This document shows, one piece after another, positions 9,280 to 62,301 of a DNA stretch of 64,000 nt. Position 1 is the stretch's first letter. Each line of letters begins with the position of its first letter. A model generated the notes under the pieces. The model worked only from the letters and a program-made list of their open reading frames with translations, did no database searches and had not been told where the DNA came from. The stretch comes from Pelagomonas calceolata (Eukaryota), in contig CAKKNE010000005.1 in the NCBI GenBank assembly GCA_918797485.1, positions 1,550,001 to 1,614,000 on the forward strand, written 5' to 3'. Made by a program: the position numbers and the translations under genes.

Positions 9280-12136
9280 CTAGTACTGGGTAAAACCCCG
9301 ATCGCCGGAGCGCGCCGCGAGCGCGCGGAGGCAGCGGCGTTCGTCGCTCAGGACGCTAGAGAGGGCTGCCCCGACTGCCTTTCGATGCGGGTAGAACCGC
9401 GCGTGTGGCAATTCCGCAGCCAGCGCGCCGAGGCAGCGGACGGCATCGGCGCGGGCGGCGGGCGGCGCGTTTGAGTCGCACGCGGCGGCCGCGCACGCCT
9501 TTACGGCGCCGGAGGCCGCGGCTTCCGTAGAGGCGCCGCCGCGCGCGAGCGTGAGCAACACGGCGGCCGCGGCGGCTTGGTTTCCATCTCTGCCGGCGCC
9601 GAGCGCGCGCGCCGCGGCCGCCCCCAGGGTTGTGGCCTCCTCGACGATGACCGCGGGCGGCGCACCGCGCGCCAGCGCGACCAAAGCGCGGTCGCGCGCG
9701 GCGCTGGGCGGCGCGGCGGAGAGGATCGGCGTGAGCGCCACGCGGAACCGCTGGCGCCAGAAGCGCGCCAGAAGCGCGCCACGCGGCGCTGGCGCCGTAA
9801 TTTGCGCGACACACGCCGCAGCGGCGTCGGCATTACCAGAGGCGAACGCGGCGGCGACGGCCTCTGCGACGACCTGTGTAGAATGACTTTGTGAAGAATT
9901 CTTGGGTGCACCCGACGCACTGGTTGATTCCACACTGGCGACGACGGCGGCCGTGCCAGGTGGTGCGTCGCGCCGCGCGACGGCCGCGCGCGCGCAGGCC
10001 GACCAGCTTTGGTCGCCGACGCGCGATTCTGCGAGCGCCCGCCGCAGGACCTCACGCGTCGCCGCGTCGCCGCGTGGCGCAAAGAGGAGGAATGCCTCGA
10101 AGCAGGGCCCCGCCTCGGGTACGATGGCCGCGTCGACAGCCGCCGCGCCGCCCCGCGCGAGGCAGGCGCCCAACCCGGCTGCGTCGTTCTGACGCGACGC
10201 GGCCGGCGCCGCACGCGCGGCCGCTTCGGCTGCGGCGGCGCCGACGACGGCCGCTAGGGCGCCCCGCAATGCGAGAGCGGCCGCCGCCGCCTCATGTGAC
10301 GCGAGCGCATCCGCGGCGCGTTGGTGGAGCCGGCCCGCGCGCGCCGCCGCGACCACCGCCGCCGCCACCGCGTCTGCTCCCGGGCCGCCCGCTGCCAACG
10401 CCACGACAGCGTGCGGGGCCCAGACGTCCGCCGCTGCTGGCGCCGCCGCGAGCGCGGCCGCCACGGCCGGGTCGGCGCCAGCGAGCGCCGCCGCTGCCGC
10501 CGCCGGCCGCGCCGAGGCGAGCGCCGCAGCGAGGCCCGGCCGGTCGCGACAGCGCGCCTTGAGGACTGCCGCGACGTTGCCGTCTCCGAGCACCTCCGGC
10601 GGCGCGCCCGCGTGCGCGGCGGCGGCGACCGCGCGGCATGCGGCCTGCGCCGCGGAGCTGCCGCCCGTTGCCGCCGCCGCTGCCGCGACCACCGCGCTCC
10701 TGGCGGCACTATCAAGCCAGGCGGCGGCGCCGAGGCCGCGGGCCGCGCCAAAGAGCTGCGCGAGCGCCCGCGCCTGCGTGAAGAATTGGAACCTGGACCA
10801 TGCGTCGCGATCGCGCCTCTCGCGAGGCCGGCGGCGTCGCACCCCGCTGCGTCGTTGCAAGCTGAAGCGCCCTTTCCGCGCCGTCGCTCACCGCGGGCGC
10901 GGCGTCCGCGCCACCGCCGGCGACCAAGGCACCCAGCGCCGGCGCAACCGCTGCGACGACCGCCCGCCATGCCCGCGGCCCCGCGCTTGCGACGGCCGCA
11001 AGGACCTGCGCCGCGGCGCGCGCGGCGCGCGACGCCGGGGACGCCGTCGCCGCCCGCGCTGCTATGCGCAGTCCCCGTGCGCACGCCACCCTCCTATGCC
11101 AGGCCCGCGCTGCGAGGCGCTGCGCTGCGGCTGCAGCCGGCGCCGGCGCCATCGACGCGACCGCTGCGACCGCCTTCATCAGCTCCTCGGCCGTCGCCTC
11201 AAGGCTCGCTTCCGGACAGACCTCGGCAGCGCGCGCCGCGAGGGTCAACGCTTCCCCGATCTCGTCAGGCGATGCGCCGGTGTCGCGCAGGCACTCGAGC
11301 GCGAGGTCGAGGGCCTCGCTCGCGAGTTCCGGCGCGGCCGTCAGCGCCGCGCGCAGCGCCTCGCGGAGCCCGACCGCTGTGACGCCGTGCGGGTTGCGCG
11401 CCGGCGCGACGAAGGACACGGGAAAGTAGGGCGATAATGCAGCGGCGAGGCCCGCAGCCGCGCCCGCGTCGCCCCAGCCGATAGTGTCCGCCGCCCGGCC
11501 ACAACCGCGCGCGGCGCCCAGGGCCCGCAGGAGGCAGCGCGGGTCGCGCTCGCCATCCACGGCCGCGGCGACGCCGCGCGCGAAGCGGGCCGCGCCTTCG
11601 TTTGAAGCGGCGGCCGCGAGCTCCGCCGCTTTTCCGTCCAGGACGGCGCGCTGCGCGTCGAAAAACCTCTCGCGCGCCGCGCGCGGGAACGCTGGGGCCC
11701 GAACCGCGCCGTCGCCGAACAAACACAGGGCCGCCGCCGCCGCCGCCGCCGCGCCGCCCTCACCGGTCCCGCGGCGCGCCGCTTCCACGACGTCCGCGAG
11801 CGCCCGCAGCGCATGTTCGGCGGACGGCGCGTCGTCCGCGCGCGCCGCGCAGAACGCGGCCAGTGCCGCACAGTCGTCCGGCGGCGGCGGCGCCTCGCGC
11901 ACAAACGTCGCGAGCAGTCGTGACGCGTTTCGCCGGGTGGAACCGACCTCGCTCGCTAGATGCCTTTCTGAGCGCGCGACATAGTCCGCACACGTCGCGC
12001 CGCGTGCTCGAAGCTCCGCCCAGGCCGCCGCCCTCCCTTCGTCGTCGGCCTCACACGCAGCCACGTAAGCCGCGATGGCGACGTCAATCGGGTCGGGTAG
12101 GAGCCATCCGAGGAGGCCTTGCTGGCGCAGCGACAT
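9280..12136 (-). CDS. MMS19: MMS19 (cytosolic Fe-S assembly / NER factor), HEAT-repeat protein; introns 10774-10891 and 9874-9945
   Basis: N-terminal motifs VDGERDPRCLL and YFPVSFVAP..NPHGVT...LR. C-terminal motif RCLGAL...PHRKAV...L.DERR.LR. A GTGAGC..CACGCAG intron joins the two long ORFs in phase 0. Start and last codons are uncertain. Confidence 0.85.
9866..9945 (-). mobile_element. Introner element (64-bp DNA-transposon-derived intron) with 8-bp TSD
   Basis: Perfect direct repeat GCGACGAC at 9866-9873 and 9938-9945. TIRs CTGTGTAGAAT / ATTCCACACTG. On the gene strand the GT donor is in the TSD and the AG acceptor is at the TIR end. Confidence 0.9.
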
Positions 12137-23322: not shown

Positions 23323-23332
23323 TGCCCGTTGT

Positions 23333-23382
23333 GGCGAACCGCGTGAAGAGGAGAAGCTGTTTGGAGCATCCTGAATGAGCAC
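23333..23382 (+). ncRNA. Degenerate copy of the permuted hammerhead-like motif
   Basis: GGCGAACC...GAGGA...GCATC-CTGAATGAG-CAC. Same element order as 46734 and 61576, and shares GCTGTTTGGAGCwTCCTGAATGAGCAC with the 27.5-kb copy. GAAA is mutated and no stem III partner was found. Confidence 0.4.
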
Positions 23383-23723
23383 GTAGGCCGCCCACTCGCG
23401 GTTAAAAGACGGGCTCCCCCCAGCTCCTACCTCCCGCACGAGCTCACGAGCTCGCCGTGTGTAAACCCCCCCCCTCTCCGTGCTCCCTCCCGGGCCCCGC
23501 TAGCCTCCCCTCTTGCCCCCCTTGAATCGAGGAGGACACCAAAGACCCGGCAGCGCACCGGAATACAAAAAAAAGCCTGCTCTCAACGGCCGCACGCGCG
23601 ACACGCAAACACGGACGGCGTAGATAGCTCAACAGATTGGGGCGCCCCGCGACGAAGGAGGCGACGGACGTGCAGGCCCTCGCGGACAGCGGCAAAACCC
23701 GGACCGCCGCGATTCGGTGCCTC

Positions 23724-26580: not shown

Positions 26581-26711
26581 TGCGATCATAAATAGGGCGA
26601 AATACCCCCCCCTATCCTATACCCTTCCTATACACTTACATCACCCTTCAACACGCAACGCGTAATAAACACAGTTAAAACCAAAACTACTTAGTGTATT
26701 TAAGGTAGCTC
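26581..26711 (+). repeat. Dispersed repeat (near-identical copy at 46492-46583; related ends inverted at ~55403-55485)
   Basis: GGCGAAATACCCCCCCCTATCCTATACCCTTCCTATACACTTACATCACCC..TTCAACACGCAACGCGTAATAAAC occurs twice. The AGGGCGAAATA and TTAAGGTAGCT ends recur reverse-complemented near 55.4 kb. Confidence 0.75.
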
Positions 26712-26807
26712 CGCGGCAGACTATCTCAGCCGCCGTCACGGTACTCCCAAAGGTGCGTACCCCTTTGGTCTTGCATTATTCGCAAGACGAATTGACGAAC
26801 GTCGGGT

Positions 26808-27479
26808 TTAAACTCCCTCCTGGGCCCCGACGAGCGGCGCGAGCGCCTCCTTCGTGAGGCGCCATACTTCCTCGACGTCGCCCTCGCCCCGGACGCTAAG
26901 CAGCGCGCCGCGCCGCGCATACAGATCCACGATGGGCCGCGTCGCCTCCTCGTAGACTCGTATGCGCCGCCGCGCAGTCTCTGCGTCGTCGTCGTCGCGC
27001 TCGCCGCTCGCGCCGCGCACCGCGATGCGTTGAAGGAGAACATCGTGGGGCACGTCATAAAACAACACGCCGCGCACGTCAAGTCCTTTCGTAGCGGCGT
27101 CCGCCTCCCAGCCTTCCACGTTGTCCGCGTTCCGCGGGAAGCCGTCCACCACAACTACGGGCGCGCCGCGCCTCGTCGCCTCGTCGATCGCTCGCCGCAG
27201 GAGCCGCAGCGTCACGGCGACGGGCACGATCGCGCCGCGGTCGAGGCAGTCCGCGATGACGCGGCTCTCCTCCGAGCCGCCGGCGCGCGCGGCGCGCAGC
27301 AGCTCGCCGGCCGAGACGTGCGCCCAGCCGAACTCGTGCTCCAGTCGTGCGCACTGCGTGCCCTTGCCCGCGCCGGGCCCTCCGAGGCAGAAGAGCACGC
27401 GCGCGTGCGGCGCGCCCGGTCGCAGCGCCGCGGCCGCGGTCGCGATCGCGTGCAAAAGCAGCCGCCTCGTCGTACCCAT
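26808..27479 (-). CDS. UMP-CMP kinase / adenylate kinase family protein with an N-terminal targeting peptide
   Basis: GGPGAGKGTQC P-loop, HVSAGELLR, VDGFPRN, RDDD. Confidence 0.92.
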   Translation of the reverse strand: MGTTRRLLLHAIATAAAALRPGAPHARVLFCLGGPGAGKGTQCARLEHEFGWAHVSAGELLRAARAGGSEESRVIADCLDRGAIVPVAVTLRLLRRAIDEATRRGAPVVVVDGFPRNADNVEGWEADAATKGLDVRGVLFYDVPHDVLLQRIAVRGASGERDDDDAETARRRIRVYEEATRPIVDLYARRGALLSVRGEGDVEEVWRLTKEALAPLVGAQEGV

Positions 27480-27524
27480 GGCGGCGGAGCGGTGCAGACG
27501 GACAAGAGCAGGACCCTGGAGCAC

Positions 27525-27573
27525 GGCGAAACGCCGACGAGGAGGCGCTGTTTGGAGCTTCCTGAATGAGCAC
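27525..27573 (+). ncRNA. Degenerate copy of the permuted hammerhead-like motif
   Basis: GGCGAAACGCCGACGAGGA...GCTTC-CTGAATGAG-CAC. The core has a 1-nt insertion and the upstream stem III/UH strand is not convincingly present. Confidence 0.45.
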
Positions 27574-27794
27574 TAAGGCTGTGGAGTCTAAGACAAAGTT
27601 GTTCTCTTGAGTGGCCCGGAGCCACCCTGATCGCGGGGCTACGACGACACCAAATTTGGCGAGGGCTGTGGCTTCGCTTTAGTTTAGTTTAGTAGTGGCT
27701 GACCCGAGAAGGGCCTCCCTTCCTACGCAAGACTACCAGCGACGAACCTTGGGCCTGCCCGTCGGGGCACTCGGGGGTCTCAACACACAAGCAA

Positions 27795-30635: not shown

Positions 30636-31295
30636 GGCAGCGGGGCTCGGTCCGCGCTAGACCTGCGCACACGGGGCGCGCGTCCCCCCCCGTCTTGGAT
30701 TTGATCCGCGTCCCTCGCGAGTGGGCAGCACACGGCGACAAGCTTGCTGACGACACACGGGGTCGCGTTTGCTTGTGTTCACGCGCGCACGCCTCGGCGC
30801 GCTCTCGCTCAAAAAAATAACCGCTTCCGCGAAGACGCCGCATCATACGCAACTATATGGCACAAAAAATAATCGCCTGCTCGCCGAGCTTACTCTAGGA
30901 TAGAGTTTTACAGGCGCATTTTGGCGACGGCACCTATAGAGCCTTACGTCCGTTTGAGACATCATGATTGGTTTTCGGACGGATTTATCTCGGACCATCG
31001 CACCGCAGCTGATTTTTCAGCGTGAGGCTGCCCGCACGGTACCAGAAATGCGCACAGCCCATTATTTTAGCATACGGAACCTGCCAGTGCGCCTCAGCAA
31101 AAATCATTTCCCGCCATTTGGTCGGTGTGGCTGTACGCGCATCATGATTGCGCCAAAACCTGCCAGCGTCGACTATTGCGCTCGACCCCCCTATAAATTT
31201 CGAAGTCTCCAAGGAGTCTTAAGCGTCGCAGGCTAATTCAATGATTCATTCTAATTAGAGCTAAGGAAAGGTAAGGAAGGATCTTACTCCAAAGA

Positions 31296-31313
31296 ATAAT
31301 AAATAACTAAATA

Positions 31314-31352
<39 letters not shown>
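31296..31352 (+). repeat. (AAAT)n microsatellite (second tract at ~31827-31872)
   Basis: Direct reading of AATAAATAAAT runs. Confidence 0.9.
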
Positions 31353-31827
31353 GCTAGGATGTGGGGCACATCAACGTATTTAGCGGCCTAGTCACGGTGT
31401 TCTAAGAGGCACCATGTGCCTGAGAAATTTTCTCAACGCTGGCTTCCAGCACCATAGGGTCTATTATGGCACCAAACACAACCCAGGTTATTCCTGGGCT
31501 GCCCCTTGGGCTGGGACACCTCCGTGAGTGTACCAAATTCTAACGCGAGGCTAGAAGCCAGCTAGCAGTTACCCTGGTTACTGTACTAGCCTTAGGCTCC
31601 CCTCGGATTCTCCGGCCAACCACAAAGCCAAATTGGCTGTGGTTTGCGTCGGCCCTCAGATTTATTTAGCCCGCCCTCCCTCCCTGTTTGATGGGGCCCG
31701 GGGAGATCTCCTACCTGTCCCCGGGGTTGGTTGGCCCGATGGGCGGCAACTGAGCAAAGAGTAAATTCCCAACTATTAGTCTGCTGCTACTCCACTAGCC
31801 ACTAAGGAAACTAGGGTAAGCTGAATA

Positions 31828-31870
<43 letters not shown>

Positions 31871-32543
31871 ATCATGATGATCATTATGATAAATTAAGGA
31901 AGACCTTAAAAAAAGGAACACTGGCAAGCTCCTAAGAGCCTTCTCCCTGCTCGGTCAGGATGCCCAACCGGAGCTTCGAAATAGCAATAAGATAACGGCC
32001 CGGGTACAACGAATTTTCAATCTCCCGGGGTAACTTGTCCCCCATGACCAGCCGACAACGGTACTAATTAACCGGTTTCCGGCCTCGGGGACGGGTAGTA
32101 CTATTTTATTAAGGAAGCACACTCCGAGTCTTTCTCGCCGATTCAGAGTTCTAGGCGTTTCGTGGGGGGGGGGGCTACGAACGCATGCTAGACTGTTACA
32201 CGGGCAGCCGCAGCCGTTCTGCGATATTCCGCTGCGAGGCCCCAAGAGTTTTTTTAGCACAGTCCCTGGGCCAGGCCGATCGTGCCCCGGCGAGTCGGGG
32301 TTGTAGCAGCAATCCTTGGATTTACTAGCTGCACGTAGAGGCTGCACTAAGAATAGATTCAGTCATAAACTTGTAGATTGGTTTCCAACAAGCTGCCGCA
32401 CCTTCAAATTACGATGATAATCATAATGATGCACTAGAAAACTCCACAGTAAGTGTGTGTGTGCGGTATAAGCATGAGTCGATTTCCATGTTACAAAATC
32501 CTTGCTTTGAATTGATTTAAGCTACATATGCATTCGTCTGCAC

Positions 32544-46295: not shown

Positions 46296-46705
46296 ATCAA
46301 CTACACCACTATTCGCCTCCAAGTATTATTAGAACAACTTTTTAACGCTGACGAGCTTGCGCTTTTGTTTGCAATAATACCAAATTTACGAGGAGCACCC
46401 CCTCCCCCACCAGCCCCACGGAATGGTCCGGGGATGTGTGTTACATTGCTCGCCGAGTCACTCTCAATTGATTCAACATTCCCGCGGTGGCTGCGATAAA
46501 TAGGCGAAATACCCCCCCCTATCCTATACCCTTCCTATACACTTACATCACCCGGGCCCTTCAACACGCAACGCGTAATAAACTGCAATGGAAATACACG
46601 TCTAGTAGGATCCCAAGGTTCAACTGAGACGTATCCAAGCACAACCCGTACTTGTATTACCCGCCTAGGCTACTTCCCATCCTAGGGTACTCCGATATCC
46701 CCTTA

Positions 46706-46806
46706 GTATACACCGCCTGAATACCGGCCACGGGTCGCGCGTCGAAGTAAGCAAGGCGAAACGCGCGGCAAGGACGACCAGGCCGGCGGCTTCCTGATGA
46801 GTACAC
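46706..46806 (+). ncRNA. Hammerhead-ribozyme-like RNA with non-circularly permuted core (copy 1)
   Basis: GTCGCGCGT-C (46734-46743) pairs with ACGCGCGGC (46761-46769) after CGAA. GAAGT (46744-48) pairs with GCTTC (46789-93), immediately before CTGATGAG (46794-46801). Confidence 0.75.
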
Positions 46807-47564
46807 GGGCATAATCATTTATATCAATAGCTATAGTTGGCGCTCGGGGATTCACTTCCTCCCAAGAAACTGGCTATTAACCCTTAAAAAAAACCAAAAA
46901 AAAATATCGGGTTTTAAAATCGATGGTTCATTTTGCCTAGGCGGTCGAGACGGTATGGGTTTTGCCAACCTTTTTTTAGAGCGCCAAAAATAAAATCAAC
47001 GTCGACTATTGCGCTCGAACCCCCCTATGAATTTCGAAGTCTCCACGCAGTATTAAGATTCGCAGTAGCTTAAAGAGGACTCATGGAGGGTGTGTCCACA
47101 TCTTAAATTACCCGACTTGGGGTTGGGCCTAGCTCGCCGCTAGGGTTCTAACCCTAGCCTAGCCTAACCTGCACCCCCGTTATGCAAGCGACTGAGCAAC
47201 TTTCAAACTTAGTGTTTTTGCAATTCAATTTTTCTTCAAGTTGAACGAGTTCCTTGCGCGCTGTTTCAATGCCGGACAAAATCAAATTTTTCATAGAATT
47301 GCCTTCTGCTCGCTTCACGTGCTTGTCCAGTTCAGCGTGTTTCTCACCGTAGAAGATGGCTGATTCTCCGATAATGCTTCTCACCTCCCACTAATTTCTC
47401 GCGCACCGCCTTATCTGGCTAACTCGGCTGTCCCTGAGCGTTCCAATGGCTATGGTGTTTCTTGGGCTGGCCCGGCGTGGCCCCATTGCCCTCAGGTGCC
47501 CCCGTTAGGCCGAAACGGCGTGACGGAGAACCAACTTCACCGGGCCGTAGCTCGCGCGCGAATC

Positions 47565-61060: not shown

Positions 61061-61547
61061 AATGGGCTGCTTTCACTTAGAATGACAAAAAAATGAACAA
61101 CAACAAGACAATGACTCGGATCCGGACTTGCAGCCTCAAGAGGCCTTCACCCTGCGCAGCCGCGGCTAGGTGATAATTTGCAAGTAGATTTGCCTGGTGA
61201 TTAATTCATAACCAGCCCACCCGTGGACTGGAATAGTCTGTTAGGTTGGTTTGTTGTTGCGCGTGGGTCAGCCCCGAAAAAGGTATAAACTCCTTCAGGG
61301 TCACCTGCCCTGAGGGCAGCTAACCCTGGAGGAGTTCATGCCTTTTCCCCTGCCGGGGGCTGCTCCGCAAGGGTGCCAAATCCGGCGTGGGGAGTGATGG
61401 TTCGGGTTTAAGACTTTTTTATTATAAACCACTGATTTCGGGTTTTGGGGAGAAACCATGGTCTAAGTTGCCTCTCTTTAGGTCTAAGTTGCCTTCACGT
61501 AAATATTGTATAATAAAAACCACAAAAAAAAGTATCGGGTTTTAACC

Positions 61548-61647
61548 GTGTATCGCCCTGTCAGACCTTTAGCGTGTTGCGTATCGTAAGCAAACGGCGA
61601 AATACGCGACGAGGACGACGGTGTCTTGGCTCGCCTGACGAGCACAC
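61548..61647 (+). ncRNA. Hammerhead-ribozyme-like RNA with non-circularly permuted core (copy 2)
   Basis: GTTGCGTAT-C (61576-61585) pairs with ATACGCGAC (61602-61610) after CGAA. GTAAGC pairs imperfectly with GCTCGC before CTGACGAG (61635-61642). Stem III covaries with copy 1. Confidence 0.72.
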
Positions 61648-61988
61648 TAGGTCACCAATAAAAGCTAGGGCTAAACCTCATTCCGCGCTCCAGGGCCCTA
61701 CCAGTGCGCTCGGATAGCACTAGAATCGACGGGGTTTCCGAGTCAAGTTTGCCTGGGCGGCATGGAGGTCGGCAGAGAGACGGCATGGGTTTTGCCTAGA
61801 CTATGTATAAGAGTCAGACGGCTTAAGTCAGCCTGAGAACCGAACTTCGCTTCGCTCGCTCAAGTTCGGTTTCCTTTTTGATGTATATCTTGTATCACTG
61901 ATCCTGGACCCCGGGCCAGCCCCCCCGGCCCGGGCCCGGGCCAGACTCCGAGTCAGAGTCGGAACAGAACACGGTACTTTACTGGGGG

Positions 61989-62051
61989 ATTGGAGACTCC
62001 ATTACATCGTTTTGTCCCGATAGGACAAAATGGTGTAATGGAGTCTCCAAT
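61989..62051. repeat. Near-perfect 63-nt hairpin
   Basis: ATTGGAGACTCCATTACATCGTTTTGTCC-CGATA-GGACAAAATGGTGTAATGGAGTCTCCAAT. Confidence 0.85.
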
Positions 62052-62128: not shown

Positions 62129-62301
62129 GGGGCGGGATATATCGGTGACGTCATAATTTTGTTGATGTGTCTTTTTTACACCACTTTTTTGATTAGAGGT
62201 TGATTGTCCTATGGGCTTATTCGACCTCTAAAATCGAAAAAGTGGTGTAAACTTGAACTTTGAAAAAGCACTCCGAGTCAACTTATATCATCATCCGCCC
62301 C
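62129..62301. mobile_element. Foldback/MITE-like palindromic element
   Basis: Outer GGGGCGG / CCGCCCC. Inner arms TTTACACCACTTTTTTGATTAGAGGTTGA / TCGACCTCTAAAATCGAAAAAGTGGTGTAAA. Confidence 0.65.

Follow-up and report, generated by a model that had tools for sequence, protein, structure and literature searches.

The window analysed here, a stretch of 64,000 nucleotides from the genome of the pelagophyte alga Pelagomonas calceolata, raises the question of how a sequence that contains all the elements making up a hammerhead ribozyme's core, in an order foreign to the familiar types, might fold, and what kind of genetic element carries it. The best explanation that we can offer, to which we give an even chance on the modelled structure, is that a hammerhead motif in the block order S, G, C, located at the fixed 3' end of a multi-copy repeat that is likely Penelope-like with a GIY-YIG nuclease, would adopt a fold of four strands.

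Order and geometry of the hammerhead core

Copy 1 of the motif carries a GUC triplet at 46741-43, CGAAA at 46757-61 and CUGAUGAG at 46794-801, as read both directly and by script, and the hammerhead core (C3-A9, G12-A15.1 and U16.1-H17) is complete both here and in a second copy described below. The plus-strand segment 46734..46743 comprises the stem III 5' strand and the triplet, with a predicted cut 3' of C46743 (pair probabilities 0.69-0.93), and is followed by the stem I strand 3' of the cut (46744..46748, +). AGGC, the GAAA core, in which G12 is 46758, and the stem III 3' strand occupy 46754..46769 (+; direct reading and script); the stem I partner strand, the CUGAUGA core (46794-46800) and the stem II strand 10.1-10.4 occupy 46789..46804 (+). 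Stem III is 9 bp long (46734-42 with 46761-69, counting U16.1-A15.1), stem I is 5 bp long (46744-48 with 46789-93, the outer pair being U.G) and the local stem II has 2 bp, G46801-C46757 and U46802.G46756. The AGGC that begins at 46754 is either the partner of an upstream arm (arm b, below) or the 3' strand of this local stem. The first-pass annotation had already located all of these core elements and stems I and III, and reading and script confirmed every one of them.

The strands of copy 1 run in the order UH, GAAA, CUGANGA, which departs from the cyclic order of types I, II and III and bears out the earlier verdict that the motif can belong to none of them. Stems I and III cross, and we judge the pseudoknotted fold that had been claimed to be right. 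A descriptor of this order with paired stems III and I located two sites within the 64 kb, with H17 at 46743 and at 61585, against none in 60 dinucleotide shuffles (1-kb blocks, both strands). Standard models pass the motif by, as had been anticipated: nothing in the window reached the Rfam gathering score, and the best signal was Hammerhead_II at 13.7 bits (E 4.9) over 46754-810. Nested folding, for which crossing stems lie beyond scope, recovered stem III together with a helix d, and the copy 1 region folded no better than its shuffles (z 0.36); pairs of stem I and of the upstream arm stayed at or below 0.02 in the nested ensemble, in which competing pairings were present.

Helix d, whose 5' strand lies at 46724..46729 (+) and pairs with 46781-46786, would extend stem III past a bulge and has six G-C pairs (probability 0.57-0.65 in the nested ensemble). 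The bulge, AGGACGAC at 46771..46778 (+), is identical in copies 1 and 2, an identity found pattern-free by comparing the two; later loci were selected on AGGACGAC and thus add nothing on its conservation. Predicted to be unpaired, the bulge is a candidate tertiary contact or protein site. Further downstream, a terminal hairpin is predicted at 46826..46878 (+), at the 3' end of the element, with -17.2 kcal/mol for 46807-46885 as a value without a shuffle control.

Blocks S, G and C follow each other as in the type SGC ribozymes of Eckert et al. 2023 (PMC10085705), so the strand order itself is not new, and the annotation was right that rearranged hammerheads have been reported; what differs is the chromosomal retroelement context and the possible wiring of stem II through an upstream arm. 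As far as the accessible part of that paper goes, its authors work with blocks S, G and C and, taking the GAAA block to be uninterruptible, arrive at six possible permutations; their rearranged hammerheads come from assembled metatranscriptomes, one SGC variant having been counted in an estuary data set, and the SGC ribozymes cleave at 0.007-0.19 per minute. HRIMA-1 and its variants share with the window motif the S-G-C order, the full core, a 5-bp stem I and crossing stems (PMC10085705). The published ribozymes have a longer local stem II, a helix between the linker and the 3' tail (I-II) and a metatranscriptomic origin, whereas the window motif is chromosomal, has 2 bp of local stem II and, in copy 1, a linker of 19 nt from stem III to stem I, and possesses an arm that can replace stem II; it also lacks the fixed stem I of HRIMA-1 (AUGUU/AACAU). 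In the published SGC pattern, block G is uninterrupted, the local stem II has 3 bp or more and the linker does not exceed 15 nt. A re-implementation that leaves N7 free gave no match in either the window or the 19 family loci listed; relaxed to a linker of 30 nt and a stem II of 2 bp, it gave nine across the window and these loci. The published SGC variants may include a relative.

Copies, subfamilies and covariation

The second copy lies at 61548..61647 (+), with an AUC triplet (61583-85), GAAA (61599-602), CUGACGA (61635-41) and an upstream arm (61548-57). First found by BLAST and not by the core pattern, it has the same S-G-C order as copy 1, to which it is 64% identical (67/104 columns), with the whole core kept and stem III restored via two double changes; its sequence is identical at the allelic loci L067 and L103. 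A metagenome search with the pattern GAAA..AGGACGAC..CTGANGAG listed at least 121 loci (~160 expected), at least 19 of which are family members by BLAST; the remaining listed loci were dropped as chance matches. Three subfamilies, with a mutual identity of 59-75%, make up the family: A, with copy 1, at least 13 loci and at least 14 copies; B, with copy 2 and the two loci allelic to the window, L067 and L103 (among the matches listed); and C, with four contigs of one locus (among the matches listed), mismatches in stems I and III and a stem III register that is one of two possible. Because the search pattern fixes the core, the listed loci say nothing about core conservation.

Stems I and III covary between the subfamilies. 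The alignment comprised 11 distinct rows from all three, including two rows truncated in the arm, and 97% of cells were paired in stem III and 93% in stem I, with two and three double-changed pairs, respectively (in stem I, three columns change on both sides between subfamilies); slid controls gave 24-51%. On alignment A1, in which just two pairs of helix b are in register, a four-helix structure had 93% of cells paired and six double-changed pairs and the plain SGC structure 96% and five; both beat slid controls, and both counts of double-changed pairs lay within shuffles (39/500 and 59/500). Since there are only three subfamilies, each compensatory change is a single event. Stem covariation across genomic copies, which the annotation had proposed as a check, was borne out by the double changes in stems I and III, but not by their number, which does not exceed that of shuffles (39/500).

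Between copies 1 and 2, 36% of columns differ, yet no core base has been lost and the stems are restored by double changes; contigs aligned on L017, although these copies are young, show their sole listed core change at N7, a free position. These observations make it quite improbable, in our view, that the motif has ceased to cleave and persists as a folded signal for the element protein or as a decaying relic. Such a loss would agree with the 5' ends, none of which falls exactly at the cut site in 13 rows (among the matches listed), with the degenerate state of subfamily C and of two relics in the window, and with the finding that a tested Penelope-like element (PLE), of the Poseidon group, inserts in vitro without cleavage (PMC11167929).

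One of these relics, at 27520..27578 (+), has GAAA, a purine-rich bulge and a core with an extra A (18.8 bits in a sequence-only model, rough E 2e-4); an ORF on the minus strand starts close by, at 27479, with the relic immediately upstream of it. The second, at 23331..23387 (+), is very similar (12.3 bits, rough E 0.024). In neither was a 5' arm of stem III recognised. Their extra core A equals the A6a insertion of Perreault et al. 2011 (PMC3088659), reported in the accessible text as having low activity, and the two are possibly an older fourth subfamily. Three viral scans returned 5, 5 and 12 pattern matches, none of which passed the descriptor; one of the 12 from the last scan, L138, gave a weak model match (18.9 bits). 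Prokaryote genomes gave a single pattern match, by eye unlike a family member.

The carrier repeat and its probable reading frame

Copy 1 sits in the 3' terminal module of a dispersed retroelement, here truncated at its 5' end (subfamily A; 46709..46880, +, with homology to some copies reaching 46890); this module copy matches at least 14 stretches in at least 13 metagenome loci at 93-99%. Apart from those at a contig end or an allelic locus, all the matches listed end at 46880-46890. With the longest unit, L017, as the reference for end mapping, 3' ends fell +121 to +133 from G12 in all 11 subfamily A rows that are not cut by a contig end, the 5' ends of A rows were scattered between -353 and 0 from G12, and 12-nt direct repeats flanked 2/13 rows (all among the matches listed). 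Depth in DNA run X1 falls steadily from ~9,400-9,900 near the 3' end of the element to ~510 upstream. Summed contig depth, which marks a repeat and does not equal copy number, is ~10,000-12,000 over 46702-46809 versus ~600 in the flanking genes in X1, and 68-83 versus 5-6 in X5. A common 3' end, ragged 5' ends, direct repeats and a depth gradient together make up the pattern of target-primed reverse transcription.

The layout of L017 adds a reading frame: a module is followed by 59 nt, the first 119 codons of ORF P0010 and a junction into the last 322 nt of the element, with the two module copies 737 nt apart. Runs X1 and X4 carry ~30-50 nt of the sequence downstream of the module in L017 and then diverge, and neither covers L017 270-685; this short downstream sequence resembles a PLE 'tail'. 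The PLE traits found are thus 5' truncation, a fixed 3' end, a tail and a partial tandem (pseudo-LTR; the tandem in one contig), and we regard the carrier as likely Penelope-like, a placement that stops short of any named clade. The ORF and the module are linked in one contig, L017, no reverse transcriptase was found in protein searches, and at the allelic locus L012 the ORF that precedes copy 1 is another one, and broken; these observations would suit another target-primed element, with the GIY-YIG-like ORF as a chance neighbour in L017. We hold that to be unlikely, since module sequence lies both before and after the ORF piece of L017, the initial 30-50 nt of the L017 downstream sequence recur independently in X1 and X4, and partial tandems, tails and 5' truncation are all PLE traits (PMC8557442).

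Searching representative proteins with the L017 ORF gave three matches in total, among them P0004 (E 2e-49), whose cluster includes a full protein, P0009 (395 aa), that is 94% identical over 119 aa to ORF P0010. Read by eye, the C-terminal third of P0009 has IIY..YIG..R..H..E..N without CCHH and a KR-rich block at its end, and would match the Chlamys nuclease trait (R, H, E, N; no CCHH). The top Atlas matches for the ORF were GIY-YIG clusters (0.93; 144 shared features versus a guide of 170), and Pfam, PHROGs and PDB sequence searches did not call GIY-YIG. Predicted folds had a pLDDT of 31 for the whole of P0004 and 50 for the domain, and in the latter, low-confidence model I-TevI was among the tied rows (Z 4.1, rmsd 3.9, 79 aligned). 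Contigs of 2.5-2.9 kb encode P0004 and P0009, and protein searches gave no longer relative. Seven further proteins (P0005, P0006 and P0021-P0025) are ~45% identical to the N-terminal part of the element ORF and possibly represent a second, diverged element family.

Most PLEs carry a type I hammerhead. The canonical and minimal hammerheads of Penelope/Poseidon pseudo-LTRs and of non-LTR retrozymes have circular orders, unlike the window motif, which shares with canonical PLE hammerheads a place in the repeated terminus of a PLE, here a likely one. Naiad and Chlamys elements, as described by Craig et al. 2021 (PMC8557442), have partial tandems, 30-40-bp tails, characteristic nuclease traits and often a KR block separating nuclease from reverse transcriptase; the accessible text reports them to be without canonical hammerheads, some keeping pieces of the core. 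The carrier has in common with them the 5' truncation, partial tandem, short tail, KR-rich block and lack of a canonical hammerhead, and would share with Chlamys in particular the putative GIY-YIG-like domain, in which R, H, E and N are present by eye and CCHH is absent. Unlike Naiad/Chlamys, no reverse transcriptase, CxC motif or microsatellite target was seen in it, and the flanking direct repeats are clear in 2/13 rows among the matches listed. Neither 'Pelago' nor 'Aureococcus' appears in the supplement of PMC8557442. The Naiad_Smim consensus given there ('HHR_half_core') shows, by eye, the S-G-C order and a possible helix before G12; the arm of that consensus is internal, placed between stems I and II, and can also pair with another segment, whereas that of the window motif lies upstream. 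The Naiad_Smim arm is thus as ambiguous as the one described here.

On its 5' side copy 1 is abutted and truncated by an unrelated, very high-copy repeat (46584..46708, no strand assigned; depth several hundred times that of the flanks in X1), in place of which L012 has 875 other bases. A 102-bp inverted repeat (35497-598/46584-685) was considered as a part of the element and rejected, as it belongs outside. Upstream of copy 2, 268 bases (61277-61544), including a 69-nt palindrome (61278-61346), replace ~68 bases of L067; with altered junctions upstream of both window copies, the 5' junction next to the arm is polymorphic in both. The broken frame of L012 (4082-4741, minus strand; ~215 codons, three stops, no clear Pfam match) ends inside arm b, and its upstream part matches 46496-46583 and 26588-26784 of the window and so belongs to another repeat. 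For the reading frame upstream of the module, matches were three short unnamed proteins with unrelated N-termini. An ORF downstream of L113 matched nothing but short, unnamed proteins that have no Pfam family; it shows no connection with the element and was rejected. An A-rich 35-nt motif that follows copy 1 and precedes copy 2 suggested a tandem retrozyme unit of ~210 nt; this was ruled out, as other A copies end before the motif and L067 lacks it upstream. Short motifs near both copies, at 46885-46917 / 61511-61545 and 46947-46966 / 61777-61796, lie outside the A module. Four A copies (L027, L033, L082 and L107) lie in or beside one apparent repetitive host gene family, which reflects either a target preference or sheer abundance.

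The window itself codes for eukaryotic host proteins (TPR, MORN, WD40, coatomer and others), and was present in 20 of 24 listed runs from cultured organisms and marine metagenomes (11 studies). Its G+C content drops from ~70% to ~50% near 30-32 kb; Pelagomonas calceolata is reported to have 63% G+C with troughs of 52% (bioRxiv 10.1101/2021.10.25.465678). From ~30000 to 64000 the window combines low G+C (45-55%) and ordinary host genes with many repeat fragments in the spacers; further palindromes span 61989-62051 and 62175-62251, and (AAAT)n runs occupy 31292-31369 and 31810-31895.

The upstream arm and stem II

Two segments 5' of stem III can pair with the strands of stem II. Arm a (46708..46711, +) is the predicted partner of 10.1-10.4 in an alternative stem II, and arm b (CGCCU, 46714..46718, +) is predicted to pair with 46754-46758, C46714 facing G12. 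All intact copies have G-U-R-Y, two bases and C-G-C-C at this place, with a C opposite G12 in every one. Arm a makes 4/4 pairs in the intact copies of A, B and C (A-U in A versus G-C in B and C opposite 10.2), and arm b makes 5/5 in A and C (outer pair U-A versus C-G) and four in B, where the arm gives G.U at 10.1 and helix b a C.C mismatch. A random stretch of 30 nt would contain a match of this a-NN-b form 0.8-1.5% of the time. Copy 1, a truncated passenger, has one mismatch in arm a: three pairs, the mismatch and two further pairs, its first base having been replaced at the repeat junction. The pairing of GTATAC and CGCC proposed by the annotation stood as far as the bases go (5/6 with GTACAC, and 5/5 for CGCC(T) with (A)GGCG), but 46706-08 are foreign to the element and belong to the very high-copy repeat that ends at 46708, the arm of intact copies being G-T-A-C.

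Duplex energies were -3.1 to -5.1 for arm a in intact copies, -3.7 to -6.7 for helix b without G12, and +1.0 (A) and -0.7 (B) for the local stem II, the arm being ~10 kcal/mol more stable than the local stem and the C-G12 pair worth ~2.4 kcal/mol. Stem II has two options: 2 bp locally, or 4 bp with a strand from upstream that does not adjoin G12. Because the arm pairs with both strands of the local stem, it replaces that stem and cannot prop it; the suggestion of a stem II of 1-2 bp propped from upstream was therefore right about its shortness and about the arm mattering, but not about what the arm does. The arm would be part either of a different, four-strand active fold or of an off-switch.

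As the active structure we favour the four-strand fold over the off-switch, giving it, on modelled energies, a chance that is neither better nor worse than even. In this fold the upstream arm would supply the partner strand of stem II (4 bp) and, two bases on, would build an additional helix with the nucleotides immediately preceding G12. The strand from stem II to GAAA would be split, the core would lie in a four-helix junction that stems I and III cross as pseudoknots, and the cut would fall 3' of C46743. Transcription via a tandem or a host promoter would lead to a cut in the upstream pseudo-LTR and to a unit-length RNA, with a circular product being possible. G12 is the general base in hammerhead cleavage, and would have to leave its pair with C46714 to act as such. 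Since the conserved C can pair with G12, slow cleavage is predicted, with much of the RNA left uncut and copied through.

The same C opposite G12 in every intact copy would also suit a plain type SGC hammerhead with a minimal 2-bp stem II and a linker-tail helix, in which the arm serves as a built-in off-switch: it would open stem II and sequester G12, leaving the 3' copy intact as a template for reverse transcription. This is the main rival reading, and we find it doubtful. Here the local pairs matter: G10.1-C11.1 and the next pair are kept in 11/11 rows, and G10.1-C11.1 next to G12 is the canonical geometry, whose local retention counts against the four-strand fold. This local stem has one-sided changes only and stops at an A.G mismatch, and the published SGC pattern demands at least 3 bp (PMC10085705). 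With -11.9 kcal/mol in B and -7.0 kcal/mol in A, the helix between linker and 3' tail would correspond to the published I-II helix, but it is weak in C (-4.7) and in A competes with helix d. For the B linker the tail is the better partner (-11.9, against -6.5 for upstream pairing), as in published SGC ribozymes, which counts against the four-strand fold; the linkers of A and C pair better upstream. That most genomic copies span the cut site (among the matches listed) also fits an off-switch. What favours the arm as part of the active fold is that it is transcribed first, that no long copy lacks it and that it is ~10 kcal/mol more stable than the local stem; an off-switch of ~10 kcal/mol strength would rarely open, leaving the ribozyme nearly always off.

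Under either fold, cleavage would be incomplete in vivo, 11/13 rows beginning upstream of the cut site (among the matches listed, and for copies selected to hold GAAA). A majority of copies that span the cut agrees with the tested Poseidon element, for which uncut RNA is the main template and cleavage is dispensable for insertion in vitro (PMC11167929, accessible text). The local and arm pair sets are partly compatible, and one could picture a hybrid in which a single G10.1-C11.1 pair is capped by a three-way junction of shortened helices a and b, or, given the partial tandem of L017, a tandem dimer. The hybrid would leave the invariant G of arm b unpaired and lose two pairs, and a dimer has little to recommend it when stems I and III are long enough in one copy and the L017 copies are 737 nt apart; we rate both together as very improbable.

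In its strongest form, the four-strand reading would make this an active split-strand hammerhead outside the six permutations, in a Chlamys-like Penelope element of a pelagophyte alga, a claim that we put somewhat below an even chance. An active split block G would break the assumption of an uninterruptible GAAA and mean that a class of ribozymes escapes both standard and published searches. It would also imply that PLEs with N-terminal nucleases, from animals to stramenopiles, carry overlooked rewired hammerheads, which bears on the point of Craig et al. 2021 that Naiad/Chlamys elements are without canonical hammerheads, some having core pieces. The chromosomal retroelement copy gives the SGC order a genetic context, and if the arm were an off-switch, it would directly answer how a PLE 3' ribozyme spares its own template.

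In a full-text search, with most subscription journals outside it, type SGC occurred in Eckert et al. 2023 alone. Full-text literature that includes few subscription journals gave no report of a hammerhead with Pelagomonas, of a Penelope-like element with a pelagophyte, of hammerhead, Penelope-like element and stramenopile jointly, or of a rearranged hammerhead in a eukaryotic retroelement. Small core insertions are common ground with Perreault et al. 2011 (PMC3088659), where those reported are of 1-2 nt and the accessible main text has no four-way junction, additional stem or stem IV. PMC13725137 mentions hammerhead variants 'containing additional helices'; in the accessible parts of two papers that it cites, PMC10162972 and PMC3088659, no helix is inserted before G12. 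Neither SGC nor pseudoknots come up in the accessible text of 10.64898/2026.07.22.740005.

Contig ends close to the cut site were considered as a sign of cleavage and rejected, as such ends occur in DNA run X4 as well. RNA runs X15, X17 and X18 cover the motif, as assembled contigs from which ends, strand and level are not resolvable; a skipped joint was seen in X15.
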